This document shows, in pieces, positions 16,032 through 52,200 of a DNA stretch of 64,000 nt. How positions within the stretch are numbered: the stretch's first letter is position 1; each line of letters opens with the position of its first letter. The position numbers and the translations under genes are program-made. The notes below the pieces were generated by a model. The model did no database searches, had not been told where the DNA came from, and saw only the letters and a program-made list of their open reading frames with translations. This DNA comes from Alphaproteobacteria bacterium (GTDB taxonomy: Bacteria > Pseudomonadota > Alphaproteobacteria > CAAHEQ01 > UBA3637), in assembly GCA_017559525.1 (NCBI GenBank), contig JAFYRI010000009.1, positions 82,148 to 146,147 of the forward strand, read 5' to 3'.

Positions 16032-16985
16032 TTAAAATTTTTCGGGATAAAAGCCATCTTTTTTTAAGTACAGATGGTATTTTTTACCTTCTGTTTCTAT
16101 TATTAAATTCGTATCTGTTTTTTCAATAATTTTAACTTTGGTATTTGTTTTATAAAAGTATCCGTTTTGATTATCCGATAAAATCAATTGATGCTTTGTA
16201 TTATTTATATAAACATGGATACTGATTTGTTTTAAAAATAATTTTGTAAAATATTGATAATAGTTTCTATTTTTATCAATTGTATCTGTTCCAGCATAAT
16301 GATGAATGGCGACATTTTCATTCCCTCCAAAATCGATCATGGCAATGTTAGTTGGTAATAATGAAAGAGTTTTTGATGTGTATCTCAAACCATTCAGCGG
16401 GGGCGTGAAATGTGTATTGTATAAGGTTGTTAAATGTGTCGGAACACCTAATCTACTAGGCCCTATTTTTTGATAATATTGAATTACTTTTTTGATAAAT
16501 GGAAGACCTTTTGCGGCGGCAATAAAAGAACCGGATAATTGTTTTTTTTCTTCATATGTCATAACCAACTGAGTGTGTCGAAATAAATGTGATGGATCTT
16601 GTGTTAATTCATGATCTGTATCTAAATATAATCCACCATATTTATATAGAGCATTAAAGCGGCACCAATCAGAAGCAAAAGACCATAAACCTTTTTTATA
16701 GGCCCATTTTACATAGTGATTGGCATCAATATCACAATTTTTTTCATCCCATCTCATAATTTGATAATCAGGGGCATTTTTTTTCCATGTTTTAATTATT
16801 TTATGAACCGAATCAGGTAAGGGGTGTTTTCCAAGCCATACATAGTGAATGATTTTTGGAATAGGGGAGTAGGTATAATACTTATATGTAAAACCGACTG
16901 AAAAAAATAGAATGAAAATAAATACCGATAATTTTTTCATGCTATTTTTTGGGGGCTTGTTGATTTTGTTTTTTGATATTTTCAT
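16032..16985 (-). CDS. DXD-motif glycosyltransferase (GT32/Och1-like); likely start ATG 16940
   Basis: IPKIIHYVWLG, FASDWCRFNALYKYGGLYLDTD; N-terminal TM. Confidence 0.85.
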   Translation of the reverse strand: MKISKNKINKPPKNSMKKLSVFIFILFFSVGFTYKYYTYSPIPKIIHYVWLGKHPLPDSVHKIIKTWKKNAPDYQIMRWDEKNCDIDANHYVKWAYKKGLWSFASDWCRFNALYKYGGLYLDTDHELTQDPSHLFRHTQLVMTYEEKKQLSGSFIAAAKGLPFIKKVIQYYQKIGPSRLGVPTHLTTLYNTHFTPPLNGLRYTSKTLSLLPTNIAMIDFGGNENVAIHHYAGTDTIDKNRNYYQYFTKLFLKQISIHVYINNTKHQLILSDNQNGYFYKTNTKVKIIEKTDTNLIIETEGKKYHLYLKKDGFYPEKF

Positions 16986-17472
16986 TGATTTCGGACAAGA
17001 TGGGTAACAACATGTTAACTACATTTCGTGCTATACGTTCTTCGGCTGATTTAGTTTTATAGGTCTTTATGAATTTAAAAATGACATAGATGCCAAGTAA
17101 TATAAACAAGACATACATAATCGCGCGCATTAATGAAGTTGTTATGTCGGAGGCAAAAGAAAGAGTTGCAGCTTTGGTTGATGCAGTCATGTGATTAATT
17201 TGGGCCGATACATATGAGGTGACACCAATGGGGAAAGACATTGCTCGTTCTGCAATTTGAACACGATTATTTGTAGCAATGGCTATTTTTTCGGCAGATG
17301 CTACATTAAAATAATGACTCACCCAATTTGGCATTTGTTTATTTATATACCAACTGCCACTACAGACAAGTCCCAATAACGGTAGATAGATGAGCGCTGT
17401 CCAAAGTAACCGTTTGACTTTATCTTTTATGGTATCTGTTTTGGGCGAAAAAACGGATTGAAGGTGAGTCAT
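16942..17472 (-). CDS. Hypothetical two-TM membrane protein
   Basis: AAAGGA RBS, two hydrophobic segments; directly after the lysis genes. Confidence 0.6.
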   Translation of the reverse strand: MTHLQSVFSPKTDTIKDKVKRLLWTALIYLPLLGLVCSGSWYINKQMPNWVSHYFNVASAEKIAIATNNRVQIAERAMSFPIGVTSYVSAQINHMTASTKAATLSFASDITTSLMRAIMYVLFILLGIYVIFKFIKTYKTKSAEERIARNVVNMLLPILSEINENIKKQNQQAPKK

Positions 17473-17676: not shown

Positions 17677-17982
17677 TTATTTTAAAATTAAATTCATCAA
17701 AGCAACACAAATTGCTGTAACAGCAGTGGCTGCCATAATATTTAAGATATTGCGAATAGGGGCTAACTCTTGACGAGAAATAAAATCTTTTCCTATTTTG
17801 TCATATAAAATACGACAATTACCCTTCAATTGAACAGTTCCCATAAAATTAATTAACTCAGTGTGAACATCTACAATTTGTTTTTTTGTACTACATACTT
17901 CTTTTTTAATATCTGTTAATTGTTTTTGTAGAGTATCGACCTGAGCCATTAATTTACCAATTTCTAATGTATATTGGGTCAT
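17677..17982 (-). CDS. Coiled-coil protein with C-terminal TM (lysis-module accessory); start moved to ATG 17982
   Basis: AAAGGA RBS before MTQYTLEIG; heptad region; C-terminal ILNIMAATAVTAICVALMNLIL. Confidence 0.55.
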   Translation of the reverse strand: MTQYTLEIGKLMAQVDTLQKQLTDIKKEVCSTKKQIVDVHTELINFMGTVQLKGNCRILYDKIGKDFISRQELAPIRNILNIMAATAVTAICVALMNLILK

Positions 17983-17992
17983 TTTAATTCCT

Positions 17993-18397
17993 TTATATAT
18001 TGTCATAAAATAATAGATTGCTGATTTGAGTGCATGGAATACCAGCATAAGCCCATTGAGGATGTATGTTTATATCATGATAATGGGTTGCTCCATTTGT
18101 ATTATCCGATAATAATCCTTTGATTGCTCGTACAGAAATCCGGTGGCAAATTTGATAAATAGGATCTGTTTTTATTAATGTATTCCAATTTAGATTGATT
18201 GGATTATTCCAACATTGAAATTGTGCGGGTTTTAAACAGACCTCTTTTATAGTTTTTCCCCACCACTCATTAATACCGTTTTGTGCTAAACGAACTCGAT
18301 TTAAAACAACATTAGCTATGCCTTCCATAACACTGATATTTGCTGTTTGGGTTTCACCATAAATGGTTAATGCCAATGTATGAATATTTTGATCCAT
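17993..18397 (-). CDS. SleB/Hydrolase_2-family cell wall hydrolase (endolysin candidate)
   Basis: LALTIYGE, IANVVLNRV, VCLKPAQFQCWN, TNGATHYH, PQWA. Confidence 0.85.
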   Translation of the reverse strand: MDQNIHTLALTIYGETQTANISVMEGIANVVLNRVRLAQNGINEWWGKTIKEVCLKPAQFQCWNNPINLNWNTLIKTDPIYQICHRISVRAIKGLLSDNTNGATHYHDINIHPQWAYAGIPCTQISNLLFYDNI

Positions 18398-19813
18398 TTA
18401 AAATCTCCATTCTTTTTGTGCGTTAAAATATCTATATGTTTTTGATGGTAATCGTATAGATTCACTCAGTAAACACCCTGCAACAGCATCCAGTGAATCA
18501 TCTTTGCTTCGTCCAGCGGGGGACCATTCTTTCATTTGCTCTAAAAAGGGTGTTTGTTTAATGCGAGTATGTGCCTTTAATGATCTATTCATTAAGATAG
18601 CGTCAAAGGCCGATAAGATACGCGAGGATTTATTTTGATGTGATGTTTTTTCTAAAACTGCACACGGAATGTGTTTTTGGGCTAGCTCCTTTTTTAATAT
18701 AGCTGGTAAAAATTTACCAATGCCATTTGTTTCCAAATTAATACATGGAATAAAATTACGCTTGATAAAATCGGCAACACATTTACATTGGTAGGTTGCG
18801 GCATCTTCATGTGATGGTACTTGTAAGTATGTAATATCATGCAAATAATATAAGCCATTTTCATCTGTAAAAACGCAAGCCACAACACTGTCATCTCCTT
18901 TATCTTTTGCTCCGAATGCGGGATCCCACCAACATGAAACAGAAATTAAACGATTTTTCCCAATTGACAATTGTGCTGTTTCATTAGCTTCTTTATAAAA
19001 TAATTCATCATTATAGAATGATATCAAATCGGAATTTAATCTACTGTCATTAATTTGAACGGCTTCTAACATCATTTGACTTAAAAATTTATTTTGACCG
19101 CTATGTTTGCGAATAGAATCAATTTTATTATTCGAAAAGCGTTCAGGCCAATTAGATTGCCCATTTTTATTCAAAATAGGGATTCTTAATTGATGCCATC
19201 CGTTTAAAAAACCATCATCGTTTGTATTATAAATAGTATCCGCTGTATGAGGTGTACCAATATATACCATCATTCCTCCTGGTGTTAGAATGTAGTCTAA
19301 TTCAGATAATTTTGCTCTTAAATCTTTTCTTTTACTTGAGTTATCACATGTTTTAGGAACTTCTACATCATCGCAAATGATTAAATCAGCTCGAGATCCC
19401 GTAATATTTGCTTGTAATCCTCTAGCAAGGACGGATGGATCTCTTAAATCAGCTGTTCGGGTTATTGTAAATCTATCGGAAGCCCATTCTTCTTTTCTGG
19501 TTGGTTTTAAATTTTTTGTCATAGGATGTTTTTCAATAATACGCTTAATATTGCGTACCATTTTTTTTGCTAATTCATGGTCAGCAGATAAGATTAAAAT
19601 GCGTGTGTTAGGATTTTGCCACAATATATAGGAGCAAAACAAACCGATAATGGTTGATTTTCCAGAGTTTCTAAATGCCATTAATAAAGCATTTTTATCC
19701 GATTGAGCTGTATAAATATCCCATAAAAAAGCACACATTTTTTTGTGATGTTTGGGTACATTTAATCCTTGTATTTGCATCCAGATCCATACAAATTCAA
19801 TCAAAGTTAACAT
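18398..19813 (-). CDS. Phage terminase large subunit (T7 gp19-like)
   Basis: Walker A AFRNSGKST, Walker B LIICDDVE, YIGTPH, nuclease acidic residues WDPA..GDDS, LETNG, DDSLDA. Confidence 0.92.
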   Translation of the reverse strand: MLTLIEFVWIWMQIQGLNVPKHHKKMCAFLWDIYTAQSDKNALLMAFRNSGKSTIIGLFCSYILWQNPNTRILILSADHELAKKMVRNIKRIIEKHPMTKNLKPTRKEEWASDRFTITRTADLRDPSVLARGLQANITGSRADLIICDDVEVPKTCDNSSKRKDLRAKLSELDYILTPGGMMVYIGTPHTADTIYNTNDDGFLNGWHQLRIPILNKNGQSNWPERFSNNKIDSIRKHSGQNKFLSQMMLEAVQINDSRLNSDLISFYNDELFYKEANETAQLSIGKNRLISVSCWWDPAFGAKDKGDDSVVACVFTDENGLYYLHDITYLQVPSHEDAATYQCKCVADFIKRNFIPCINLETNGIGKFLPAILKKELAQKHIPCAVLEKTSHQNKSSRILSAFDAILMNRSLKAHTRIKQTPFLEQMKEWSPAGRSKDDSLDAVAGCLLSESIRLPSKTYRYFNAQKEWRF

Positions 19814-20078
19814 TTAAATCCTCCAATTCTGCAGATGCTTTTTTTGCTTTTTTTAACCATTCAGATAAATCAGTATCTATAGGTGTTGTATCGTTTCCTT
19901 GAGTTAATTTAACCAATAAAGAAATATGCCCTAAAACGGCTTTACATGCCGAATGATAGGCGTTGAATTCTTTTGCATCAGACCAATTTTCTTTGGCCAG
20001 AAATGTTTCATAACTGGCCAAAGCCTTATTCAGATAAGGGCGCAATACCTCTTTGAGCATGTTTTCTTCACAGCTCAT
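19797..20078 (-). CDS. Small helical protein overlapping TerL; candidate terminase small subunit
   Basis: AAGGAGG RBS; overlaps the terL start; size fits. Function is inferred from position only. Confidence 0.45.
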   Translation of the reverse strand: MSCEENMLKEVLRPYLNKALASYETFLAKENWSDAKEFNAYHSACKAVLGHISLLVKLTQGNDTTPIDTDLSEWLKKAKKASAELEDLNVNFD

Positions 20079-20090
20079 TTGAGGCCTCCT

Positions 20091-20564
20091 TTATTTTATT
20101 ATCATACGTCCTAAACCATTGGCGGAATCTCCAATATTTTTTAAATATCCTGATTTTGTTTCATTAGAGTGTTGAGTTAAGGACAATAAATTGCGAGTTC
20201 GTGTTTCATCAATACCATTCTGTAGGGCTTCCAATGAAATATTTGCTTTGTTTATTAAATATTTGTCTTCTATGTCATGTTCTTTTTGCATATTGTCTAA
20301 TATAGCTTGACCAGAACCAATTTGACTCAATCCTTCTGCACCTAATTTTGCTTTATATGCAGATTGTTGTTGGGCAAGTAAGCTTCTATTTTTACGTTGT
20401 TCTTCTTGTAATGTTAATCCAATTTGTTGTTTTTCTAATTCATATTCTTTTTCTGCGGCAACTGTTGCTGCATTAATTTGTTTTTTTTGAGCATCTGCTG
20501 CTTTTTTTGAATAAAATACGGATGCCGCTGTTGTCGCAACGGCTGTGATGGCTGCAACTTCCAT
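20091..20564 (-). CDS. Putative internal virion/ejection protein (T7 gp14-like)
   Basis: Ala-rich hydrophobic N-terminus, coiled coil, QQQSAYKAKLGAEG; position after tail tubular B. Confidence 0.55.
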   Translation of the reverse strand: MEVAAITAVATTAASVFYSKKAADAQKKQINAATVAAEKEYELEKQQIGLTLQEEQRKNRSLLAQQQSAYKAKLGAEGLSQIGSGQAILDNMQKEHDIEDKYLINKANISLEALQNGIDETRTRNLLSLTQHSNETKSGYLKNIGDSANGLGRMIIK

Positions 20565-20566
20565 TA

Positions 20567-22486
20567 TTAACCTCCTATTTTTAAATCTTGAGTTACGCTA
20601 ACAATTTTAAATGGTTTGGGTAAACTACCAATAATACGCCACGGGGGAGTTGTCGGGGAACGATTCCATCTCAATGATCGAATAACTATATCGGTTGTTT
20701 GTTTTTTTATTGAACTATTTAATGTATATGTGTTTAATGCATAAGGCATTTCTTGACGAATGCCAGATCCCGTATCGATTTCTAATGTATTTGTATCGAT
20801 TAATCTGAAGATAGCTTTTACTAAACGATAACAAGATACAGGAGCGGCAGTATTGCTTGCACTAATAGCTGGTGGTAACGGTGAAATAATGTGTGTATAT
20901 CCTATTCCCATTTCAATCGAATGGGCTGTTATGGGAAGTGAAATTGTATTTGTATGAGGTATTTCATCAGGTAACACAATATCATCTGCCATTATTTTAG
21001 TTGTTTGTCCAATTAAATGTTCTGGTACATTAAATGTATTTGAGGGTATTTCACTTGTTTGAATGATACTACAATCTGTATTTAATGTATTATCAAAACA
21101 TTCTAAATAATAAGAATTGTTTCTAAGTACAATTGTATATGCTTTTGTTCCCACCATGCAGATAGATAAAAAAGTACCATTTGTTATAAGTTCGGTCCAA
21201 CTTTGAATATCTTCTGAACGAAATGAACATAATACGCCAATATGACCATTTTGCATTACAATATACGTTTGTCGATTGTGTTTATCATAGGTGCTATCTA
21301 TAGGCTTATCAATCAGGTGAGATGCTAATAATGACAAGTCTGTAGCTTGATATGCTTGTTCAATATCTGAAAATAAAAACTCTCGAATTTCATACCCGTT
21401 TGCAGCAGCAAATATTGTAGCTCCATCAACGCCTAAAGGAGGGATATATCTATCAGATCTTGAACCAACTTGTGTTTGACGATTCAACTGAATATTAGAT
21501 GGGGTTAAAGGATTTCCCGATACCATCCATTCAGATGATGTGGTAAAGATTTGTAAATGACGCCCACTATACAATGCACAAATAGCATTTAATCCATCAG
21601 ACATAATAGTAAATTCTATCGCATGAGAATCATACCCATCCCCTAATTCAAAATTGGTGATATCAGCACTTTGACTAAACCATAATGTATTGGGTAATTT
21701 TCGACTGCCACCAAAGACCAATCGGGATTGATAAAAAGCAGTGCAAATTGGCCATCCATATGTATCATTAAATGCTGGTTCATAAAAAGAACGTGTAGGT
21801 TCTAAAGCTGATTTGTCATCAGCCTCTGTAACCAATTTTTTCTTGATATCAGCTTGAGCTTCTGTAGAGCTTGAAATAGATGTAATTTGTGCATATCCTT
21901 CTGCAATTTTTATTTGTTTTCCAATATGTCGTTCTTCAAAAAAGTTCGCAGAAGTAGTTAATGTGACTTTTCCACTAACTGCTGAACTTTTGATTGTGAT
22001 ATCTTCGTTGCAAAATTTATGATATGGTTCCAAAATACACCCATTTTCAGTCATAAATGTAAAATTATTTAATGCCCAGCCATCGGATGTTTTTTCCAAT
22101 TTTTTAGGTTGGATATCAGGATGTGTTAATAATAATTTATTTTCATATTGGCACCACCGTATATTATTTAAATGTTCGTTTGTATAAGGTGTTTCAATAC
22201 TGATAATCAATGTATCGTGATGATAAATTAAAAGACTTTTATGTTGTAAAATCACCAAATAAGATTCTGTTGTGCTGTATTCTAAACAAATGAGTTTTCC
22301 TGTACCATTTAGAGTATTAATATATCTTAATCCTGGTCTTCTTTTAATGCCTCCAGTTGGTTCGATAAAAACATTTTTTAGTTCCATCGCTCCGTTTGCA
22401 TATGCTCTTAAATCTACACGTCCTAATAAATTATGAGATAATTCACCAGCGGTAAAATTTGTTTTTGCGGTAAAAATATTTGTCAT
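20567..22486 (-). CDS. Tail tubular protein B / nozzle (T7 gp12-like)
   Basis: NFTAGELS..LLGRVDL..Y, GGIKRRPG, GWP...FYQSRLVFGG, LWFSQS, HLQIFT. Confidence 0.85.
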   Translation of the reverse strand: MTNIFTAKTNFTAGELSHNLLGRVDLRAYANGAMELKNVFIEPTGGIKRRPGLRYINTLNGTGKLICLEYSTTESYLVILQHKSLLIYHHDTLIISIETPYTNEHLNNIRWCQYENKLLLTHPDIQPKKLEKTSDGWALNNFTFMTENGCILEPYHKFCNEDITIKSSAVSGKVTLTTSANFFEERHIGKQIKIAEGYAQITSISSSTEAQADIKKKLVTEADDKSALEPTRSFYEPAFNDTYGWPICTAFYQSRLVFGGSRKLPNTLWFSQSADITNFELGDGYDSHAIEFTIMSDGLNAICALYSGRHLQIFTTSSEWMVSGNPLTPSNIQLNRQTQVGSRSDRYIPPLGVDGATIFAAANGYEIREFLFSDIEQAYQATDLSLLASHLIDKPIDSTYDKHNRQTYIVMQNGHIGVLCSFRSEDIQSWTELITNGTFLSICMVGTKAYTIVLRNNSYYLECFDNTLNTDCSIIQTSEIPSNTFNVPEHLIGQTTKIMADDIVLPDEIPHTNTISLPITAHSIEMGIGYTHIISPLPPAISASNTAAPVSCYRLVKAIFRLIDTNTLEIDTGSGIRQEMPYALNTYTLNSSIKKQTTDIVIRSLRWNRSPTTPPWRIIGSLPKPFKIVSVTQDLKIGG

Positions 22487-23052
22487 AAACGTACCTCAAT
22501 AAGGGAAAAATCTTGAAAGGCTGTTGGAATAGATTGTTGAGAATCGATGTTTTTAGCCATAGAAAAATCTTTATCAGCCATTTTCCTTAAATGTTCAGTT
22601 CTATTCGTACTTTCAGTTAAGGGTAAGCAAAATTCAGTTGCTAAAAATGAAATCACTAGTTGCGAAAAAAATGGTGGAAAATCTGTTTCGTTTGGTTTAA
22701 ACACATATGTTAGTAAAACAGTTTCACTATCTGTATGTAATTGATTTCCTTGAATGCGATAATCTAATCCTTTTCCAATGCCGATAGGGCCAGCTGAAAT
22801 AGCTCTCAAAAAATCATTAGGTAGTGCATAGGCATATTTATAATCACCATTTGGATTTTTTTGTAATCGTGCCAGTTCTTTTTGAGTTGTTGCAAATCGC
22901 CATGGATAAGCAGATAATAGGCCATCAACTGTGGATGTGTATAATTGTTCTGCAACACTAGCTTCAGCACTTTTTTCATTGAATGAAGCTATACTTTTTG
23001 TACCAATTTTAGTCAAGGCTCTGGAACATAAATCAATAGATGAAAAGGGCAT
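22483..23052 (-). CDS. Tail tubular protein A / adaptor (T7 gp11-like)
   Basis: IDLCSRALTKIG, YPWRFA, YAYALPNDFLR; position between capsid and nozzle genes. Confidence 0.85.
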   Translation of the reverse strand: MPFSSIDLCSRALTKIGTKSIASFNEKSAEASVAEQLYTSTVDGLLSAYPWRFATTQKELARLQKNPNGDYKYAYALPNDFLRAISAGPIGIGKGLDYRIQGNQLHTDSETVLLTYVFKPNETDFPPFFSQLVISFLATEFCLPLTESTNRTEHLRKMADKDFSMAKNIDSQQSIPTAFQDFSLIEVRL

Positions 23053-23080
23053 AGTATTCTCCTAAAAAACAATTAAAGTG

Positions 23081-23106
23081 AAAACTGGACGGGATTGCCC
23101 GTCCAG
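23081..23106 (-). terminator. Intrinsic terminator after major capsid gene
   Basis: Minus strand CTGGACGGG-CAAT-CCCGTCCAG-TTTT, 9-bp perfect stem. Confidence 0.75.
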
Positions 23107-23132
23107 CTGAAAACAATAGAGGTTAAAATGAT

Positions 23133-23951
23133 TTATTCTGTGATAGCAGATACATCTATTTTGATGACTCCTTTATCATCAATTAAACAAGCTCCTTGAC
23201 TCATCATATTGTTTACAAAATGTGCCGCATAATCACCATGCCATGTGATGTCTGTTTTGATATCTTGACCAGATGCATGACCAATCGCAGATTTATGATA
23301 AATAAAACAACTATGTCCATTGCCCGATTTTGGTAATCCCGTATGCATAATCCATACAATACCCATCCATTTTCGAGTTTCGCTACCTGTTAAAAATGGA
23401 TATGCTTCTCCAACATAATTAGCATTAGAAAATTCTTCAATACTCATGAGTTGATTCCATGCATCTGGAGAGAGTAAACCATATCTTTCACCATCATCTG
23501 GCACATCGTTTTTATTCAAAATGGTAAAGGCTTGCATGATACGTTCTTTTGTAAGAGCTCCTTCTCCAATTGATTGTGTTGCTCCGCTTAATGCATTGAT
23601 AATTAATTCATCTGTTTTTCGACCAAGTGCATAGGCGCCAGCTTGAGCCAATACCTTTCTTTCATCATGACCTAATTTTAATTCATCTAAAGAATCGACC
23701 CATTGGCCAGAATAGTAATCTGTTAACATACATTCAACAGGTACATGTGTGATATCATTTGAAGTAATTTGTGCATTACGTGTTTTTGTATTTGCTGTAG
23801 CTGTTCCAATAACTTGGAATGTTGTGCTAGCGCCTTTAATACCAGATTTTGAACGGACTGTTGATTGTAATTTTGACCCTTGTTGTTGATAGGCATTATG
23901 CACTTCAGCTTCAAAATGTTTGATAAAAGAGTTATCGATTGTTGTTGTCAT
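23133..23951 (-). CDS. Major capsid protein (podoviral HK97 fold)
   Basis: FIKHFEAEVHNAYQQQGSKL, AGAYALGRKTDELII, FIYHKSAIGHA, MSQGACLID; position after scaffold. Confidence 0.85.
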   Translation of the reverse strand: MTTTIDNSFIKHFEAEVHNAYQQQGSKLQSTVRSKSGIKGASTTFQVIGTATANTKTRNAQITSNDITHVPVECMLTDYYSGQWVDSLDELKLGHDERKVLAQAGAYALGRKTDELIINALSGATQSIGEGALTKERIMQAFTILNKNDVPDDGERYGLLSPDAWNQLMSIEEFSNANYVGEAYPFLTGSETRKWMGIVWIMHTGLPKSGNGHSCFIYHKSAIGHASGQDIKTDITWHGDYAAHFVNNMMSQGACLIDDKGVIKIDVSAITE

Positions 23952-24072
23952 AAAATATTCCTTTCATTTGTTTAACATAAAAAAAGGTTTATTTATGGTT
24001 GTAAGGAAAAACTCCTTGCCGTGATAAACCAAGGGGAGTTGGGGGCTTAAAAAATTAAGTTATCCTTAAAAA

Positions 24073-24762
24073 TTATTTATATAGGCGTTTAAAGCCATCT
24101 TCTACACGTTTTAAAAAAACGGGATCTTGTTCTTTCCAATATTTTGGATTGCGCATTAAAGCACGTAAAGATTCATTTGATATAGTTTCTTGTGTTTGTG
24201 AAGATTGAGGTAAAATACTTGGCTCTGTTTGTTCATTCATCATTTTGTAAATAGTCATAATGCCATCTTTGCTAGTGGATAGAGCATTAAAAATATCTGG
24301 TTTTAAATTTTTTTCACCCCAAGCAGAAATTTGACGAGCAACTGTATTAAATCCTTCTGCGCCACCGAATTCTCGTTCTAGTTCAGCCATTTCTTTATCG
24401 GCACGATAATCTGCTGATAAATTTTCTAATAGAGGAATAATTTTGTCTGCTGCTAAATCATACACAGCTTGTAATTGTTCATTGGTAAAACCAAGATTGA
24501 ATAATTTCTTATTCATTTCTTCGTCTATAACCAATTTTGGATTTTTCATAACGATTTTATACTCTTCTGGACTACTTGGCATATTTCCTTGAGTTTTCAT
24601 TGGCAATAATGTTTGACGACTACTAAGTTTTTTTTCTAGTGCCAAATATGATTTTAGTAATTCATCTACTTTGATTTCACCTGTTGTTGAATTTTTAAAT
24701 TTATTTGGTACTTTTAATGTATCTGTTGTTTGTTCGTTTTGATTTTCTTTTTGTTCAACCAT
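24073..24762 (-). CDS. Capsid assembly scaffolding protein
   Basis: VPNKF..LLKSYLALEKKL, PSSPEEY, LMRNPKYW..DP; position between portal and capsid. Confidence 0.75.
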   Translation of the reverse strand: MVEQKENQNEQTTDTLKVPNKFKNSTTGEIKVDELLKSYLALEKKLSSRQTLLPMKTQGNMPSSPEEYKIVMKNPKLVIDEEMNKKLFNLGFTNEQLQAVYDLAADKIIPLLENLSADYRADKEMAELEREFGGAEGFNTVARQISAWGEKNLKPDIFNALSTSKDGIMTIYKMMNEQTEPSILPQSSQTQETISNESLRALMRNPKYWKEQDPVFLKRVEDGFKRLYK

Positions 24763-24772
24763 ATTTTTCTCC

Positions 24773-24979
24773 TTATGTTTGTGGTTCTTTTTTCCCCTGG
24801 CAAATCAAAGTTTCTATTTGATGAACCAAGAAACGCTCTCCTTCTAAAAAGCGTAATTCATTATCTGATGCAGATGCGGGTAATACGCGTTCTTTTGTTA
24901 GATGCTTCAGATAAGATAAGACCTCTTTTCCATCATGCGATGTAAATAATCGGGCAAATTGATGTATTGGAGGAATCAT
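24773..24979 (-). CDS. Small conserved phage protein downstream of portal (Bbp19-like)
   Basis: FARLF..DGKEVL.YL...LRFLEGERFLV motif typical of this slot in podoviral head modules. Confidence 0.65.
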   Translation of the reverse strand: MIPPIHQFARLFTSHDGKEVLSYLKHLTKERVLPASASDNELRFLEGERFLVHQIETLICQGKKEPQT

Positions 24980-26493
24980 GATTTTGTCCCGATATAATTT
25001 GATAAATCAATAATATTGTTTGATGAGTTATCATCGTTTTTATAAGATATTTGTAATATATCTGATGGCACGTTTAATTTGTCTCCTAGCCATTTTACAA
25101 ACAATGGGATATTGATATTTTGTAATGCAATATCTCCCATTTTTGTAATTGTATTAAACCAAGTCAGTGCGTTTTCTGCATCAATTTGAGCTTGTTCATT
25201 TGCTCGAGTGGATTTGTAAGCAACTTTTAACAAGTGATTGTCTACATAAATATCGGGTATTTCTCCACGACGCCGTAATAATGCTGCGGCTCGATCAACT
25301 AGAGGCATTAATAATTCCGTTTGTAAACGCCCGTATGTTGCACCCAAAATACGCATCATCTGAGCAGACCGTTCTCGGACTTCGGTGGCAGTCATACGTT
25401 CTTGGTCCAATTGTCCCAATTTATCTCCTAGTAAAGCATGACGAATATGTGAACGTAAATCTTCAATTACTAATTGTGATACGTCAAATTTACCGGGGGC
25501 TTCTAAAGGGGTTAATCCTTTTGAACCAACGGCTTTAGGAATAATCGCACCAGGGGTTAGTTTAATGTTAGCGGGATTAAGCACTCCATCATCTTCAGCT
25601 AACCAAATACCAGTTACAGCAATAGATGCGTTTTTTAAAATAAGTTCTACGACCTTATTAGCTGTTTTAATATCGGGTAAGGCCTTCATAACAGGTGATC
25701 GTCCATAAACTTCCCCTGGTGCTTTGACCCAGCGAAAGGAAATAAAAGGTGATGTTGAAAAGACACTTTCCTTTAATAAGGAGTTAACACCTTTTAGGGA
25801 ATCGTGCTGGTTGTCTGGTTCCAGAAAAACACTGTATGTATATCCACCACCGATACGCGGTAAGACCGATTCTATAATAGATATTTTTGCTTCATCTTCA
25901 GTTAATGCGCGTACAGCTTTATCGTTTAGTTCAAAATTTGGAAAACGATTTTTTAATGTTAAATAATCCATTTGTGATTTACGGAAGGTGCAATCTAAAC
26001 GACCCGATGGTCCTTCATCTAAACAAATTTCAGATAAAGGAACACATAAGAAGCGAAAAGCAGAAGTATATCCAAGTGGAGCTTCTTCAAACAATAAACA
26101 AGCAGTTCCAGTTGTAATTAAATCCAAATAACATTGGTGTATTTCTAATGCAAAATTAGAACGATCAAAGTGTGCTTGAATGGTATCAGAAATTTTCTCT
26201 AATGTTGGGCTGATAGAAGAGGCATCTTCTTGAGATAAGTCTGTTCCTGCTGTTAATTTAAACCATTTCCCCCAAGGTGGTGTCATTTCAGATAGCATTA
26301 AAGCAGCTAATTGATCTACACAATCTGGTGCAGTGCCATCAAATAATTGATTGATTTTTGACGAACTCTGAGCAAATGCGCTTTCACGTTGAGGAAGGGC
26401 AAATTCATAGCATTCTTCCCAAGTACTATCCCACGCTGAGCGTTTATTTAATGCTTTTTTATATTTGGCGTAAATGTGTTGTACGTCAGACAT
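24976..26493 (-). CDS. Portal / head-tail connector protein (T7 gp8-like)
   Basis: WEECYEFALP, LFDGTA, GEVYGRSPVMKALPDIKTAN, MTATEVRER, LGATYGRLQTE. Confidence 0.92.
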   Translation of the reverse strand: MSDVQHIYAKYKKALNKRSAWDSTWEECYEFALPQRESAFAQSSSKINQLFDGTAPDCVDQLAALMLSEMTPPWGKWFKLTAGTDLSQEDASSISPTLEKISDTIQAHFDRSNFALEIHQCYLDLITTGTACLLFEEAPLGYTSAFRFLCVPLSEICLDEGPSGRLDCTFRKSQMDYLTLKNRFPNFELNDKAVRALTEDEAKISIIESVLPRIGGGYTYSVFLEPDNQHDSLKGVNSLLKESVFSTSPFISFRWVKAPGEVYGRSPVMKALPDIKTANKVVELILKNASIAVTGIWLAEDDGVLNPANIKLTPGAIIPKAVGSKGLTPLEAPGKFDVSQLVIEDLRSHIRHALLGDKLGQLDQERMTATEVRERSAQMMRILGATYGRLQTELLMPLVDRAAALLRRRGEIPDIYVDNHLLKVAYKSTRANEQAQIDAENALTWFNTITKMGDIALQNINIPLFVKWLGDKLNVPSDILQISYKNDDNSSNNIIDLSNYIGTKS

Positions 26494-26539
26494 TATTTTC
26501 TCCTGTAAATAAGTGATAGGTTAATATTTAGCCCCAACC

Positions 26540-26573
26540 AACAAAAACACCCTTGAGTCATAGCCCAAGGGTG
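26540..26573 (-). terminator. Intrinsic terminator in the 5' leader of the portal operon
   Basis: Minus strand CACCCTTGGG-CTATGA-CTCAAGGGTG-TTTTTGTT (10-bp stem with one G-U), between the promoter and the portal ATG. Confidence 0.75.
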
Positions 26574-26608
26574 AAAAATGGATACACTGGTGGTTGTTAA
26601 CTGAACTC

Positions 26609-26637
26609 AATATAGCACATTTTTATTCCGTTGTCAA
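26609..26637 (-). promoter_or_regulatory. Sigma70-type promoter for the virion operon
   Basis: Minus strand TTGACA-17 nt-TATATT with extended -10 TG. Confidence 0.75.
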
Positions 26638-26651
26638 GGATTATTTTCCTT
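26636..26651. promoter_or_regulatory. Palindromic operator overlapping the -35 of the virion promoter
   Basis: AAGGA-TTATTT-TCCTT; a related site lies at 27468-27483. Confidence 0.5.
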
Positions 26652-27030
26652 TTTTCTTTGATAAAAATTTAAAAAGCTGATAAGGCGTTAAAATAAAACG
26701 TTTTTTTATTCCTAAAAATCTTTTGACTGTTTCAACACATGTAAAGGGCATTAAAACAGCGCGTGAGACATTTGGAATAACTGGAGTTGTTCGAATTAAT
26801 TGATAGCCTTGATTGGTTAATGCCTTTTTAATATCCACATTTTTCAACACAATAATGTCCGTAAAATGAGATAGAGTATCAATTAAAATCCATTCATATC
26901 CATTTCCAAGAATAATAAAACAATGATAAAAATTTTTTTTTAAAAAATGCATCCACCAAAATCTGGGTTCTCCACCAAATCCAACATAGGCAAAAGGGTA
27001 TCTGTATCCACATAATGATTCGTTTTTCAT
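26641..27030 (-). CDS. Hypothetical protein, possible permuted papain-like (NlpC/P60-superfamily) fold
   Basis: FYHCF then PFTCVETVKRFLG..ILTPYQLF: His before Cys, with a C-terminal TP motif. Confidence 0.45.
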   Translation of the reverse strand: MKNESLCGYRYPFAYVGFGGEPRFWWMHFLKKNFYHCFIILGNGYEWILIDTLSHFTDIIVLKNVDIKKALTNQGYQLIRTTPVIPNVSRAVLMPFTCVETVKRFLGIKKRFILTPYQLFKFLSKKKGK

Positions 27031-27380
27031 GCAACAATTCCTTTTTGTTTTAATATGTTGTTTAAAAAATCTAATGCTTCATCCCATAATTTACATATGC
27101 GTGGGCTATCACCTAAATTAGGGTGAGGAGGGATTTGTTGCATGCCATATTTAGATAAAATTTTGGCATGTTCTTGCGAAATAATGCCACTTTTAAGTAA
27201 TCGTTTAACCGCAATAATAATATCTGACGATTCGCATGGTCTGATGATAGATTTGTGTCCCCCTCTACTACGTGTACAACCAAGTGATTCGCATAGACAA
27301 CACCAAAACCATGCTTCTTCTGAGTTATCAAAAGGTGTTGTTTTTGGATCGTAATGTGTGATTGGATTATAATGTTTCAT
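27027..27380 (-). CDS. Hypothetical protein, first gene of the cluster; candidate activator/antiterminator
   Basis: GGGAGG RBS; PFxxxEEAWFW, RPCExxDI, LWxEA..L..KGIV; preceded by an SOS box. Confidence 0.6.
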   Translation of the reverse strand: MKHYNPITHYDPKTTPFDNSEEAWFWCCLCESLGCTRSRGGHKSIIRPCESSDIIIAVKRLLKSGIISQEHAKILSKYGMQQIPPHPNLGDSPRICKLWDEALDFLNNILKQKGIVA

Positions 27381-27407: not shown

Positions 27408-27422
27408 GAACAAAATGAGAAC
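27408..27422. promoter_or_regulatory. Alphaproteobacterial LexA (SOS) box
   Basis: GAAC-AAAATGA-GAAC is an exact GAAC-N7-GAAC direct repeat, 28 bp upstream of ATG 27380 and just downstream of its promoter. Confidence 0.8.
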
Positions 27423-27429
27423 AAAATAT

Positions 27430-27458
27430 CTAATAGTTCAAAAGTATGGTCTTGTCAA
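27430..27458 (-). promoter_or_regulatory. Promoter of the 117-aa gene
   Basis: Minus strand TTGACA-17 nt-TATTAG. Confidence 0.55.
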
Positions 27459-27467
27459 GTGGCTAAA

Positions 27468-27512
27468 TAAGATAATTTTCCTATTGACAAGGAATAAAAA
27501 TAATGTTATCTT
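27468..27512 (+). promoter_or_regulatory. Operator-like palindrome plus sigma70 promoter of the repressor gene
   Basis: TAAGATAATTTTCCTA immediately followed by TTGACA-17 nt-TATCTT (extended -10 TG). Confidence 0.6.
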
Positions 27513-27536: not shown

Positions 27537-28178
27537 TTGATGCAATTAAGTTATTCTGAAATTTGGGCGGGTATTGAAAATTTGGCGGCCCAAAATGGTT
27601 TGTCGTTATCCGCTATGGCGACAAAGGCCGGATTGGATCCGACCAGTTTTAATAAATCTAAACGAGTCGGACCGGATGGACGTAAACGCTGGCCATCAAC
27701 GGAGAGTATGAACAAGTTATTGCAAGCCATGAATGTGACTATTTTTGAATTTGTGGAATTAGCTGGCGAATCACCAGTGCCTCCCCACAATCAAACAATA
27801 CCCTTGTTAGGATTGGCAAAAGCCGGTCGGGAAGGGTACTTTGATTCTGATGGTTATCCACTTAGTGTTGATGAGTGGGATGGCATAGAATTTCCGTTGG
27901 TTTTGGATAAAAATGTGTATGCGTTAGAGGTTTCCGGTGACAGTATGGAACCAACGTATCGTGACGGTGATAAATTAATCGTCTCTCCCGAAGCCGAAGT
28001 ACGTCGTGGTGACCGAGTCGTTGTAAAACTGATGACGGGTGAAGTGATGGTCAAGGAACTTATCCGCGAATCTGCTAGACAAGTGGAGTTAAAATCACTA
28101 AATCCTGCGTATAAAGACATTATCGTGCCAGCCTTAGACGTTTTATGGATGAAACGTGTCTTGTGGGTTAGTCAGTAG
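27537..28178 (+). CDS. HTH transcriptional repressor with S24 (LexA/CI-type) peptidase domain
   Basis: N-terminal HTH (GLSLSAMATKAGLDPTSFNKSKR...WPSTES), Ala-Gly site (AKAG), catalytic Ser (GDSMEP) and Lys (VMVKEL). Confidence 0.9.
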   Translation: MMQLSYSEIWAGIENLAAQNGLSLSAMATKAGLDPTSFNKSKRVGPDGRKRWPSTESMNKLLQAMNVTIFEFVELAGESPVPPHNQTIPLLGLAKAGREGYFDSDGYPLSVDEWDGIEFPLVLDKNVYALEVSGDSMEPTYRDGDKLIVSPEAEVRRGDRVVVKLMTGEVMVKELIRESARQVELKSLNPAYKDIIVPALDVLWMKRVLWVSQ

Positions 28179-46240: not shown

Positions 46241-49200
46241 TTAATTGTTGTGTCCTTTTTTTGTGAACAAAGGTTTATAAAATGCTTGTTTGTCTTTAGT
46301 ATCTTTTGGAGTATTAATTGGTTGTTTCGTGTCTGATTTTTTCAAGAAAGATAATCGACTACCGGCTAATCCCAATAAAGCACCACAGATATTTTTTGAT
46401 GTATTCTTTGGATTTTCTAAAGCTTGAAGCATGTCTTTTTTAATTTCAGCTTCAATTCCGTTTGAAACATTTGAAGTATTAACAATTGAATCAACAGCTT
46501 GTTTTTCTTGCTCTGTTAAAGGTGTTTGTTCAGATTTTGTTTGTTCTTCTGTTTCTTCTGGAAGAGGTTCAATTTGTTCAGGTACAATAGGTGCACGAAT
46601 TTCGTTGGCCTCTTCTTGCAAAGGATTTTCTTGAGCAATATCAGGTGCTAGTTCTGATGTTATAGCTACATTTTCAACTTGAGTATTTTCTTCTTTAATA
46701 TCTGTTTGATCTGTTAAAGAAATGCCTCTATCTTCCATTTGTTGTTTTAATTGTTCAAGAGCCATTGTTAATTTTTGGTACTCTTCTCTCAATTCTTTAT
46801 CAGAAGCTAATTTCTCTTCTTTTTGATTTGTTATTTGTTCTGTTTTTTCAACAGGTTTTGACATATCAAAATTAAATACATTATCGGTTGTATATGGTGT
46901 TGAAGAACTATTATGTGTTACAACAGGTGTTTCTTTTGTATTCGTAAAGGCAAAAGAAACATGTTCTTCTGGTGTTACGAGTGATACTTTTTCCTCAGTT
47001 TTTTCTATCGGAGTATCTAGATCTTTAACACTTGTATTGTTTGATAGTTGTTTTTCTGATTTTTCATATGGTACAAATGGTACATATGGGTGAGATTCGC
47101 TTTGATTTTCAACTGCTTGTTCAGGCACTGGTGCAGGAGCTGGTTCTTCCACCACCGGAGTCGGTTGTTCAGCCACTGGTGCAGGAGCTGGTTCTTCCAC
47201 CGCTGGAGTCGGTTGTTCAGCCACTGGTGCAGGAGCTGGTTCTTCCACCACCGGAGTCGGTTGTTCAGCCTCTGGTGCAGGAACTGGTTCTTCCACCACC
47301 GGAGTCGGTTGTTCAGCCACTGGTGCAGGAGCTGGTTCTTCCACCACCGGAGTCGGTTGTTCAGCTACTGGTGCAGGAGCTGGTTCTTCCACCGCCGGAG
47401 TCGGTTGTTCAGCCACTGGTGCAGGAGCTGGTTCTTCCACCGCTGGAGTCGGTTGTTCAGCCACTGGTGCAGGAGCTGGTTCTTCCACCACCGGAGTCGG
47501 TTGTTCAGCCACTGGTGCAGGAGCCGGTTCTTCCACCGCTGGAGTCGGTTGTTCAGCTACTGGTGCAGGAGCTGGTTCTTCCACCACCGGAGTCGGTTGT
47601 TCAGCCACTGGTGCAGGAGCTGGTTCAGTTACTTTTGGAACTACCGTTTCAATTTTAAATCCTGCATCAGCACCTGGTCTATAAGACATATATCTTGCTT
47701 CATTTAATCCTGCAATATCATGTATAAAGTGGCCAGATGTATCCACAGCTGTTTCTATTTTTCCAAGCATTTGTACTATTTGATCCGATGTAATGGGTGG
47801 TTGGCCAAGAAATAAATCGGCTCTTAAATCTGTAGGTGTATATATTCTACCGTCTGCTAATATTATACCAAATGCTTCAGCGACAGTTGTTCGGTTCCCA
47901 TCAATTATTAAATCTGTATCTGATGCAACCAATTTATCAAACTGATTTAGTTTATACATCAAAATATCGGCATTGGACGTGCCATTTGCTCCCGTTAATT
48001 CAGAGTGTGTTCCTTCTAATGAACGGATTTGTTTTAAGGCATTATCCAATTGTCCTGTTGTATAATCTGGTTCAGTTAGACGACCTTGAGCATCATAAAC
48101 ACCTTCTCCATTCAAACGTGCTTGAGCTAATTTATGAGCAAAATCATCATAAGTATGGGCTACTTGAGGATTTTCAAAAGTTGTTGCTTGTACCTGAATG
48201 TCGTATGTAACTGTTGGATTATTAGATGTCTCAGACATTGGAACAGCTTCTTCATAATTACCATTTTCCGTATTAGGGTTAAGTTCCATTGAGTTTGTTG
48301 TTATTTCATTGCCGCTAGCATAGTTAGGTGCTTGCATTTCTAAATAAACGGCTCCTGTATCTGAATCTACCTCCATAATGGTACCATTTGTGGCAATGGT
48401 GGATGGATCTTGAATATTTTCATAACCATAATTATCTGGAAACAATGGATTAGCACCATTTTCTGCGTTATGTTGTGCGAGCAATTCAGGATTTTGTTTT
48501 AATTTAGATGTAAGCCATTCTTGATACTCAAAACTGGGGAGACCATTTGCATCTACAGGAGATGGGACTCTTTCACCACCTGCAATTGCATCAGATACAA
48601 TCATTTCTTCAACACTTAATTCTTCAGCATAATCATCATTAATCAAGGCCTCTTGTTGTTTTGGTGTTAAGTCTGGAGCAGTTACATTAGGATTCTCATG
48701 ATTTGCTTCAAGTGCATGTTGAATCATTTCTGAAGTTGCTGTTATTGGCTCAGCTGTATTCAAGTTTACAGGATTGATATCAACGGGTTGATTTTGTAAA
48801 GTAATCGATCCTTCAGGATTGATATCAACGGGTTGATTTTGTAAAGTAATCGATCCTTCAGGATTCGGATTAAAATATATTGCTTCGGATTGTTGTGCAA
48901 TATCCTCTAATGTTAATTGAATTTTATCAGCATTTATAGGTTCTGGTTGAGGTTGTACGGTACCCGATCCTGTATCGCCACTATCTGTGCTAGTTCCGGC
49001 ATCTGTGCTGGTGTCCGTAGGTGTGTCGGTAACTGGAGTGCTTTCAGATATTTCTTGTCCCGTTTCTGTAGCAGTTTGTTGTGTTGATGTTTCCGACGCT
49101 ATAGTATTGCTCATGCTTGAACCAATAGTGGCATATAATAATCCACCTGTTGATGCAGAGCCTATAAAAGCAGAAACAGATTCTGGTAAAGAACGGGCAG

Positions 49201-52200
49201 TAGAAGCTGCTGTACTGTATCCTTCATCTTTGTTGCGCTTAAAGATTGATTTAAAGTTTATTCCAGCAGATATAGCACCAATACCTAATGCTACAGCTGG
49301 TAATCCCATGGCGATAGCTCCGATGGATGCACTGCTTAATAAAATTTGTGTCGTATTTCTTTTAAAGAAACTTTTTAATGGTTGAGGTTCTTTGCCGTCT
49401 TCTTTTGCTTTTTCAACTTCTTTTTTGCGTTGCCACCACATTAAACCACCGACATAAGCTGCAACGGCACCAGCAATAACGGGCATTACTGGTAAAGCAA
49501 GTGCAACAGCTCCTAATCCAGCGCCAGAAACCCAGGCTCCCCCCATAGATCCAAGACCAAATTTTGTTAGGCATGCTTTTCCTAAATTTGTTTGCTTTTG
49601 TCCTTCTAAATTTTTAACAGCTTTGCTTACTTTATTAACAATATCGGCCTTGTTACCAAAGTTCGTTGCTAAACGCTTTGCTAATCCAGTTTGTTTATTT
49701 ACAGTAACAGTTGTAAATCCAACCAAAGCCTTTCGAGGCATTTCATATGTTTGTTCTTTTTTTAAACTATCAACAATATCAGTGGCTTGTTTTGGATCTT
49801 TTCCTTGGAATTTTAAATCTGAAGCAATTAATGCAGTTGTATTAATTTCAAGCAATTCATTTGCTCTTGTATTGATGCTTTCAGGTGTTAATTCATCTTT
49901 TGATAGAGTTGTTTCTATTAATAAAACTGTTTTAACAATATTTTTTAATAATTGAATACTTTTTTCTGCAGTATCGTTATTAACAACATTACCTTCATCA
50001 TTCGTAAATTTAATCTTTTTATAGTATGGTGCAAATTTAACGTCTTTTAATAAAGCTTGAACTTGATCAAAACGTTGAGATAATTGATCATCTTTAGCAG
50101 AAATACTGCTTAGATTGTTATTTTTATCATATAATGCAATTTCTTGATTTAAACGAATACGAGCAATCGAAGCATTTCTATCTGTACCTTTATACAAATT
50201 CAACATTTGTATCATATCATCATATACATCAGCAATATTGTCTTGATCAATAATGGTGTTGCCTGTGATATAATCGGCAATTATTGTATCCATTTGTTGT
50301 GTAACAACATCTTTTTTCCAATCTACTTCAGGATCTTGTTTTTTACCTTCTAACTCGGTATACATTTTTACTAGTTGAGCCGTTGAAATAATGGGCATTG
50401 TTACTTGAGCCGCATTATTTAATGCATCTTGAACTCGATCTGTTTTTTCATCTGGTACTGTATCTAAAATATCATCTAAGATTTTCTTTGCATTTGCTTT
50501 CTTTAACGTATTGAAGCTAATATTTTTAGGTAAATTACCAGAATTTTTTAAAGCATTATATTTTATAAAATTAAAAATATCTTCAGTTGAGGCTTTATCG
50601 TGATTTTTTACAAAATTTGCAACATCCTCATCTAAAGTGCTATCAGATGAATAAGTATCATCATCGATATTGAGTTCTGTATTATTACTTGGCATTGGCT
50701 GAGAGGGTTCATTTAAATCCACCAACAATGTCGGATCAATATTATGTTCTACAATTGTGCCATTAATATTTGTAATAGATGGTTCTTCATCATCATTTTC
50801 AGTATTAGCTTGTTTGGCTATTTGTTCATTAAATATCTTTAAAACAGCTTCTAAATTATTACCTATTTCAGGAGATTTATTTAAAATTTCACGGGTTGAT
50901 TTTGCAGCCACAATCATTGGCAACATAATATCCATTTCTTCTGGATTGATTGGTTCTAATCCAATAATTCGACCATTTTCAACAATTTCTTTTGTTTCTA
51001 ATATCGGAGCTGCATGCTGTTTTATTGTTTCAATTTGATCTTGTAAAACCCAAGGTTGAGCTTGTAATTTTCCTCCAGTAATAATAAAGTTTTTCTCTAA
51101 TTCTGCAGCAATTTTTATAGCTTGATTCCATGCTTTTTCTTCTGTAGTTAATGGTGTTGTTTCAATTTTTGTATCAATTGATGTTGTAATATTATCACTG
51201 GTTTCTGGTTGAATTACACTTTCACCTTTAAATTCTGGTGTTGTTACTTCATTAGTATGAGAAACAGGATCAGCTACTTGCTCTTGATTTAATGTTGTTT
51301 GATTTTCTTGTGCCGTTGTTTTTACTTCTTCAGCAATTTCTGCAAAAACATTTTTAGCATCTTCTCCTAAGGCACGGAACATTTTAGGGCTATTTATTCC
51401 ACCCATTGAGATAATGGTATTGTCACTAGACAATCTTTTATCTTTCATTTTTGTTTCGGTTAATTGTCTTAATGCATTTTCTCCAGCCATTAATTCTTCA
51501 GCTGTAGCTCCATCTTTAGGTCGGAAATATGTTCCTTCTCGTTCTGTAACAGAAATATCATAAGCTGTTGAAATGGCTTTTATTTGCTTGTCATATTGAA
51601 TTTTTTGTGCTGCTTGAAATTCTTCATAAGCACGATCCAATTGAGCAGACATTTCAGGAGAAATGCCAAGAAATTGAGTTTCGTTTTGATGTACAACTTG
51701 TGGAGTTTGATTTTGTACTACATTTACCTTATTAATATTTTTATTGAGTTGATTTGCAGGTTTTGTTAGTTCTATCATTTTTACAGCTTTTTCTATATGT
51801 TGTGTTGGTACACTGAAAAATGATGGTATTATGTTTTTTTCTTGATTAGAGTTTGTTTTATCACCAAAATAATATTTTAACAAATGAATGGCTTGTTCTG
51901 CATTGTTATTGTTTATCTTGTGTTCACTTAGTTTATAAAATGCGACATTATTATCATTAACCAAAGGTGTGTACACACTAAATATAATGCCCATATCTTC
52001 TTTATATTTTTCTTCTCGCATAGTATTTGCAATATTTTTAATGATATTTTTAGCAGCTAAATCTTTTCCGCGATACATTTCAGGTTGTCCCATTCTATTA
52101 AGTGTTTCAACAGCAAATGTATCACCAGTATATATGCTTCCAGAAGGATCTAACTCTTTTGTAACAAGCTTTTTAAAGGCGATTGTTGCATTTTCAATTT

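Follow-up and report, generated by a model that had tools for sequence, protein, structure and literature searches.

The 64,000-nucleotide stretch investigated here (the window; contig JAFYRI010000009.1, positions 82,148 to 146,147 of the forward strand, assembly GCA_017559525.1) stems from an alphaproteobacterium of the GTDB lineage CAAHEQ01; UBA3637, whose genome comprises 1.346 Mb on 20 contigs with a GC content of 35.5%. It contains a T7-like gene cluster of about 10.5 kb, the genes of which span approximately positions 17677 to 27380 on the minus strand and follow each other, leftward from 27380, in the order p117, p129, portal, Bbp19-like protein, scaffold, major capsid, tail tubular A and B, p157, p93, large terminase, endolysin and p123 (Table 1). 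A divergent gene in front of p117 encodes a cI-like repressor that has a Peptidase_S24 domain. Between the two lies a direct repeat that most probably represents an operator of the host's own LexA protein, placed over the start site of the early promoter of the cluster.

The direct repeat and the early promoter

The sequence GAACAAAATGAGAAC is an exact GAAC-N7-GAAC repeat on the plus strand. On the transcribed minus strand it reads GTTCTCATTTTGTTC and spans approximately +1 to +16 of the early promoter P_early, with a gap of 7 nt between the TATTAG −10 hexamer and the box, which is thus located about at the expected start site. The start of p117 and its ribosome-binding site GGGAGGAA follow downstream of the box. 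The first-pass annotation, which was made from the sequence alone, had described exactly this neighborhood of a GAAC-N7-GAAC repeat and a TTGACA-17-TATTAG promoter close to the transcription start, and its description was confirmed. The promoter itself is inferred from the alignment of 41 relatives, in which the TTGAC (41/41) and the TA of the −10 hexamer are invariant.

The genome harbors a single lexA gene (G000:C13:19795-20433), whose product combines a LexA_DNA_bind and a Peptidase_S24 domain, and only one recA gene. Both carry the same motif as the cluster, a point that the first-pass annotation had proposed to check, and both boxes read GAACAAAACAAGAACA and directly follow the −10 hexamer (lexA, TTGACA-17-TAAATT-a-GAACAAAACAAGAACA; recA, TTGCAC-17-TATACT-aaaa-GAACAAAACAAGAACA). 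The equivalent 16 nt of the cluster site, GAACAAAATGAGAACA, are identical to them at 14 of 16 positions. Only four exact boxes are intergenic in the whole genome according to crude gene calls, namely those of lexA, recA and the cluster and a fourth one upstream of rpsP (GAACCATCGCCGAAC), which is unlike the other three. Boxes with one mismatch were found outside the window 38 nt before ruvA (GAACAAAACAAAAAC; G000:C8:82782) and 24 nt before a gene for a tatD-type DNase (GAACAAAATAAGAAT; G000:C6:22701), and these look-alikes may belong to a very small SOS regulon as well. In Caulobacter, the published LexA site is GTTCN7GTTC (PMC9578287), the same repeat read on the other strand.

Conservation of the box in the family and beyond

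The comparison was based on 80 related metagenome-assembled genomes (MAGs) belonging to the GTDB family of the window, whose closest relatives are MAGs of gut or rumen Alphaproteobacteria. A portal orthologue is present in one copy and with 53–90% identity in 53 of the 80 genomes, and two additional portal matches are weak (26–27% identity). All 53 upstream regions were inspected, and in 41 of them the exact GTTC-N7-GTTC box lies downstream of a conserved TTGACA and ahead of the ribosome-binding site that belongs to the p117 orthologue. Six genera carry it in every or almost every member, namely g1 (6/6 loci), g4 (1/1), g6 (4/4), g7 (1/1), g9 (9/10) and g16 (20/21). In the MAFFT alignment, which comprised the 41 mutually distinct regions with a box, GTTC and TTTGTTC are invariant or nearly so, and the promoter spacer and leader are variable. 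In the window the box begins 7 nt past the −10 hexamer; in most genera it abuts this hexamer.

All 30 inspected genomes carry a box just after the −10 hexamer of lexA, 13 of them an exact one and 17 a variant with one mismatch, which was read by eye and lies in the second half-site. An exact box is present upstream of recA in 20 of 30 genomes. The lexA gene was found in 67 of the 80 genomes. The 21 genomes of genus g15 are devoid of a cluster orthologue (a single weak match has 27% identity), but lexA is kept in 20 of them, and all 11 inspected lexA promoters of this genus have a GAAC-N7-GAAT or GAAA box. The situation in g15 could reflect a clean loss of the cluster or an element that was never gained. 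The recA upstream regions of four g2 and g8 loci (L069, L072, L076 and L077), which lack an exact box, contain a variant about 110 nt upstream (GAACAAAAC[A/G]TGTAC) or a remnant of it; those of G021, G023 and G024 (g9) have no box at all.

A wider set was established by searching species-representative genomes with a p117 profile, which resulted in 117 relatives among 168 candidate stretches, 80 of which were kept. They include Micavibrio and Hyphomicrobiales MAGs as well as the Rhodospirillales isolates Azospirillum cavernae, Skermanella stibiiresistens, Niveispirillum fermenti, Rhodospira trueperi and Siccirubricoccus soli. In 61 of these 80 loci, the p117 homologue is preceded within 300 nt by an exact box in either orientation, and only four boxes are present in the remaining 448,489 nt of the loci, which corresponds to 0.0027 per 300 nt. 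Among the 50 most distant loci the box is found in 36, and a divergent S24 gene lies within 1 kb in 45. The conservation upstream of orthologues that the first-pass annotation had proposed to check holds in the family and in the wider set. One member of the wider set is S. stibiiresistens (L209 and L210, G081:C26:79000-116000), whose GC-rich locus was read by tblastn because of unreliable open reading frame (ORF) calling. The order of its cluster is the same, the capsid gene is split by an insert of about 11.4 kb, and a gap of about 2.7 kb separates the tail tubular B gene from the p93 homologue. In A. cavernae and R. trueperi the terminase match is not located near p117.

Gene content of the cluster

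The coordinates of all features are compiled in Table 1. The portal, scaffold, capsid and tail tubular A and B genes stand in the T7 order, and host genes flank the cluster, with Lnt and a porin on the right. No integrase, replication, RNA polymerase, DNA polymerase, internal core or tail-fibre gene was detected between 16032 and 31245 with Pfam and PHROGs, no tRNA is located within 10–36 kb of the cluster, and p117, p129, p157 and p123 have no Pfam, PHROG or NCBIfam match. From its position alone, p93 might be guessed to be the small terminase.

The arrangement of the S24 gene followed by p117 to p123 is identical in all ten relatives sampled (ten genomes from eight genera), and their neighboring genes are partly shared. 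The identity of the portal proteins amounts to 75–90% within and 53–72% between genera, and the corresponding values of LexA are 78–90% and 53–67%. An in-frame stop was found in only one portal gene of the family (G005). This pattern agrees with transmission of the cluster along the host lineage and with selection for it. A homologue of p117 was not found among 50,697 phage records. The best portal match of an isolated phage belongs to a Pelagibacter podophage (34% identity), and those podophages have a size of 34–36 kb. An unannotated 5,084-bp record from human faeces, deposited as ‘Bacteriophage sp.’ (MT838907.1), encodes a portal that is 54.9% identical to that of the window, and DNA of the cluster type may therefore occur in preparations of virus-like particles.

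Table 1. Features of the cluster and its upstream region, with positions in the window
Feature	Position	Strand	Evidence and remarks
Endolysin (Hydrolase_2) and p123, last conserved genes	17677–18397	minus	PF07486; synteny stops at p123 in 10/10 relatives
Terminase large subunit	18398–19813	minus	phrog_38, E 1.8e-85
p157 and p93, conserved proteins	19797–20564	minus	Syntenic in most relatives; p93 matches phrog_31793, a family with no assigned function
Tail tubular protein B (nozzle)	20567–22486	minus	phrog_376, E 5e-113
Tail tubular protein A	22483–23052	minus	phrog_394
Major capsid protein	23133–23951	minus	PF19821, E 4.5e-67; phrog_3437
Scaffold protein	24073–24762	minus	PF05396, T7 capsid assembly protein
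Bbp19-like small protein	24773–24979	minus	PF25181
Portal, T7-type head-tail connector	24976–26493	minus	PF12236, E 1.5e-122
Intrinsic terminator	26543–26573	minus	10-bp GC-rich stem and T-tract; downstream of P_late, upstream of portal
Conserved leader element CAGTTAACAACCACCAGTGTATC	26581–26603	minus	Between P_late and terminator; alignment of 30 loci
P_late, TTGACA-17-TATATT with extended TG	26609–26637	minus	11/12 consensus positions; conserved in family alignment
Palindrome AGGAAAATAATCCT, candidate operator	26637–26650	minus	Abuts the −35 of P_late
p129, second gene	26641–27030	minus	AlphaFold2 model, pLDDT 83.2; His36 and Cys98 invariant
p117, first gene, 117 aa, predicted small four-helix protein	27027–27380	minus	AlphaFold2 model, pLDDT 82.8
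LexA operator (SOS box), predicted site	27408–27422	minus	Exact match, likeness to lexA and recA boxes, conservation
Early promoter P_early, inferred	27430–27458	minus	TTGACA 27458–27453, 17-nt spacer, TATTAG 27435–27430
Divergent promoter TTGACA-17-TATCTT	27484–27512	plus	Promoter scan
cI-like repressor gene, Peptidase_S24	27540–28178	plus	PF00717, E 1.3e-24; phrog_4

Some further features were recorded in and around the cluster. A strong terminator-like hairpin of 11 pairs is located between the capsid and tail tubular A genes (23083–23108, minus strand), and hairpins after highly expressed capsid genes are common. The region 16032–17472 past the conserved end of the cluster encodes a membrane-like protein of 176 aa, which was found in one of ten relatives, and a DXD-type glycosyltransferase of 317 aa, which tblastn found in none of them; both genes beyond p123 look like variable cargo. 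Outside the cluster, the window contains an ORF of 2,030 aa on the minus strand (46241–52333).

The divergent repressor

The S24 protein is distinct from LexA, as it scores 40.1 bits on the equivalog TIGR00498 (cut-off 110.95) and has no LexA_DNA_bind domain. Its closest solved relative is the C-terminal domain of lambda cI. It retains the Ala-Gly site and the catalytic Ser and Lys (LAKAG, GDSMEP, VMVKEL) and is apparently self-cleaving. Of 18 aligned homologues, 16 possess these residues and the other two, G016 (g8) and G030 (g12), have lost them; the N-terminal domain is highly conserved. The idea that the genera without a box are still SOS-inducible via cleavage of the S24 protein is compatible with g2, but it fails for g8 and g12, where the Ala-Gly site, Ser and Lys are lost.

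Early proteins and the late promoter-terminator cassette

The two proteins encoded by the early genes were compared with known structures. The best VIA matches of p117 are Q21 (Z 7.1; 93 residues aligned, root-mean-square deviation 4.5) and AlpA (Z 6.1), followed by sigma region 4 domains, and a Q/AlpA-like or sigma-region-4-like regulator is a possible assignment on the basis of the predicted model. The VIA matches of p129 are weak (TseH, Z 7.1; YiiX, 5.6; the cysteine peptidase 3kw0, 5.3), and its model makes a permuted NlpC/P60 cysteine hydrolase of the YiiX/TseH type possible. A Foldseek search of p129 against the PDB retrieved no match at E ≤ 0.001.

Between the stop codon of p129 and the start of the portal gene lies a compact cassette, which consists of a palindrome, the strong promoter P_late, a leader element and a hairpin in this order. 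The palindrome AGGA-N6-TCCT abuts the TTGAC of P_late in all 30 investigated loci of the family, and its 16-mer is unique in the genome. The hairpin with its T-tract was retrieved by set criteria in 29 of 30 loci, RNAfold gives a hairpin in all 30, and the stem sequences differ between the loci. The palindrome is moreover located between the −35 and −10 hexamers of P_early in g2 (four of five genomes) and g8 (3/3), i.e., in genera that lack the LexA box. The S24 protein and p117 are candidates for its binding. A pairing of the palindrome with the S24 gene outside the family was tested and rejected, as it was found before the portal in only two of 49 loci, both from gut MAGs, and in the early region in eight of 49. 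An intergenic copy with two mismatches (TAGGAAAATATTCCTT) is located elsewhere in the genome (G000:C16:40413, outside the window).

A probable LexA operator on the early operon

The likeness to the boxes of lexA and recA and the conserved position argue strongly for the proposal of the first-pass annotation that host LexA acts on the promoter of the first gene, and we regard the direct repeat as, with high probability, a LexA operator over the start site of P_early. The host cell itself thus seems to decide when virus-like particles are made. The more general claim that LexA gates the cluster requires a distinction. Direct control can be maintained for the two-gene early operon, and the structural genes are probably reached via a further step. 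The presence of a second promoter and a terminator before the portal in 29–30 of 30 loci indicates that LexA probably controls only p117 and p129 directly.

The proposed succession of events is as follows. In undamaged cells LexA would occupy the box and block the transcription of p117 and p129. DNA damage would cause the RecA-stimulated self-cleavage of LexA, thereby setting the early promoter free, and p117 and p129 would be expressed. The eleven structural and lysis genes are located behind a strong second promoter that is predicted to run into an intrinsic terminator, and they are probably not read directly from P_early. An early product, for which p117 is the best candidate, may allow the RNA polymerase starting from P_late to pass the terminator in the manner of lambda Q or AlpA. 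We consider this antitermination step, which is drawn from analogy, about evenly poised between right and wrong. The cI-like S24 repressor would represent a second damage-sensitive lock, and the outcome would be that, triggered by the SOS response, a part of the cells forms podovirus-like particles and lyses.

Several observations weigh against this interpretation. P_early is absent from the list of the consensus promoter scanner; its −10 hexamer TATTAG is weak, the missing T at position 6 explains the omission, and the promoter is a predicted one. The orientation of the box relative to transcription is opposite to that at lexA and recA. The counts of boxes do not represent independent events, because they stem from MAGs that are related to each other. 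The exact box is absent from 12 of the 53 family loci, and LexA control is hence not universal. They comprise every locus of g2 (5 genomes), g8 (3), g12 (1) and g14 (1), furthermore G061, whose contig ends before the site, and G024. The latter harbors a decayed box (CTTCTATTTTTGTGT) and a lexA gene with an intact box of its own, and an insertion of about 1.6 kb (L048:1133-2760), which is GC-rich, repeat-laden and contains a small ORF, separates its S24 gene from the conserved promoter. The exact recA box is missing in 10 of 30 genomes. No lexA match was obtained in seven box-bearing MAGs with a completeness of 59–96%, nor in the box-less genomes G030 and G032. With respect to antitermination, the VIA scores of p117 are below the reliability line of the tool for helical proteins, and the Foldseek search against the PDB (E ≤ 0.001) retrieved no match for it. 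A late cassette in distant taxa had to be rejected, since a simple promoter pattern was found in none of 30 loci and a terminator-like hairpin, several of them weak, in 17; the cassette is accordingly claimed for the gut family only.

Alternative explanations

A chance match in AT-rich intergenic DNA without any regulatory role would be in line with the frequency of the motif, since one box was observed in the window and 1.16 were expected, at least one occurred in 76 of 100 shuffles, and the 29 exact matches in the 1.35 Mb of the genome equal the estimate of about 29 from its composition. It is, nevertheless, the least credible of all readings, because the likeness to the lexA and recA boxes reaches past the core, the box is invariant in 41 distinct aligned sequences with variable flanks, and its frequency upstream of p117 homologues in the wider set greatly exceeds that in the rest of the same loci. 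Only slightly less improbable is the binding of the repeat by the neighboring S24 protein instead of LexA. The adjacent and divergent position of its gene in 10/10 relatives and 45 of 50 distant loci and its highly conserved N-terminal domain are compatible with such a role, but another contig bears the same box at the promoters of lexA and recA, and lexA promoters have it across the whole family, even in g15, where an orthologous cluster is missing. The S24 protein moreover lacks the LexA DNA-binding domain, stays far below the cut-off of the LexA equivalog (40 versus 110.95 bits), and the repeat equals the published Caulobacter site. It is just as implausible that LexA mainly regulates the divergent S24 gene. 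On the strand of this gene the box reads GAAC...GAAC and has the orientation that is found at lexA and recA; yet it ends 61 nt upstream of the −35 hexamer of the S24 promoter (27484), which is too far for occlusion, and in all genera carrying the box it extends over part of the −10/+1 region of the leftward promoter.

The alternative of an ordinary temperate or defective prophage concerns the nature of the cluster. The S24 protein would be the real switch, the LexA box an accessory comparable to that of GIL01, and the conservation would stem from a widespread phage lineage that continues to infect these hosts. A divergent cI-like repressor is the classic prophage layout, the structural genes are T7-like with related portals in Pelagibacter podophages, the split capsid gene of Skermanella shows decay, the terminase match lies apart from p117 in A. 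cavernae and R. trueperi, and the faecal phage record encodes a portal with 55% identity. However, there is no integrase, replication or polymerase gene in or beside the cluster and no tRNA, host genes flank it, a single copy is present in 53 of the 80 genomes with the same order in 10/10 relatives and partly conserved neighbors, and the divergence of the portal tracks the genus and equals that of LexA. Its 10.5 kb are far below the size of the related isolated podophages, and p117 is devoid of a homologue in the phage records searched. We therefore regard the prophage scenario as unlikely, if less so than the three readings of the repeat considered above.

The cluster is instead read as a chromosomally fixed, reduced T7-like element and as a candidate for the gene transfer agent (GTA) kind. 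The first-pass annotation had taken LexA control as a sign of domestication. The domestication as such is supported by the absence of integrase and replication genes, the single copy, the fixed order and a divergence like that of LexA. The LexA box alone is no such sign, because true temperate phages such as GIL01 also use the host LexA.

Comparison with known systems

The direct repeat and its spacing are those of the LexA regulon of Caulobacter crescentus; the box is located at −10/+1 of the promoter and is also present at lexA and recA of the genome investigated here. The target at the cluster is, by contrast, not a repair gene but a phage-derived particle and lysis cluster, and the box has the opposite orientation to those of lexA and recA. 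Host LexA also represses the early promoters of the Bacillus thuringiensis phage GIL01, on whose late promoter a LexA-like protein of the phage acts (PMC6182141). As a temperate phage, GIL01 replicates; its host is Gram-positive and its virion is of another type, whereas the present cluster lacks replication genes and appears to be chromosomally fixed.

Lambda has a promoter, PR', that runs straight into a terminator, tR', before the regulated genes. In the Pseudomonas aeruginosa AlpR/AlpA/alpBCDE and lambda Q systems a damage-sensitive repressor of the LexA/cI type controls a small regulator, and the terminator behind the target promoter is then bypassed (PMC7969949, PMC9371919); AlpA bypasses terminators located just downstream of its target promoters (PMC7969949). 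The cluster resembles them by the promoter-terminator cassette before the portal and by Q21 and AlpA as best, albeit weak, structural matches of p117. It differs from them, as p117 shows no sequence similarity (structural Z 7.1 and 6.1) and the host LexA itself is predicted to act on the promoter of the regulator. A comparable logic is found in the R- and F-pyocins, where the self-cleaving LexA-like PrtR gates the small activator PrtN and thereby domesticated phage structure and lysis genes (PMC9578287). Pyocins are tails without capsid and terminase; the cluster encodes a portal, a capsid protein and a terminase.

Like the GTAs RcGTA, those of Caulobacter and Bartonella, and FpGTA, the cluster contains structural, packaging and lysis genes and no replication or integration genes, is smaller than a phage and inherited with the host lineage. 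RcGTA represents an HK97-like siphovirus module; the present cluster is by its genes of the T7-like podovirus type. RcGTA is connected with LexA via CckA, whereas the operator reported here is located on the cluster's own promoter. FpGTA of Faecalibacterium is an element of the gut and probably podovirus-like (PMC12946183). The literature search met no description of the cluster, with most subscription journals outside its reach.

A putative family of LexA-controlled podovirus-type elements

In the most far-reaching interpretation, which we put forward tentatively and consider rather less likely than not to be correct in full, the cluster is the type example of an ancient, undescribed family of T7-like GTAs or SOS-triggered altruistic particle and lysis systems. 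This family would be distributed across the Alphaproteobacteria, from rumen and gut lineages to Micavibrio and the Rhodospirillales, and would be controlled by a three-tier switch of LexA operator, self-cleaving cI-like repressor and Q-like antiterminator, with the LexA operator of the early promoter (six genera) and the palindrome of the element itself (g2, g8) having replaced one another during evolution.

To our knowledge, few lineages are known to harbor GTAs or other domesticated phage structures, which are in most cases connected with host regulation in an indirect way. In the present case the master regulator of the host apparently acts directly on the switch of a compact podovirus-type cluster, which is conserved throughout a family of uncultured Alphaproteobacteria from the gut and whose relatives can be recognised in cultured Rhodospirillales. 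The occurrence of a LexA box in some genera, an own palindrome in others and the loss of the cleavage residues in yet others can be viewed as a natural experiment on how regulation is rewired. Should the particles contain host DNA, damage to the DNA of these bacteria in the gut or rumen, for example by antibiotics or diet, would be a direct trigger of gene exchange and lysis.

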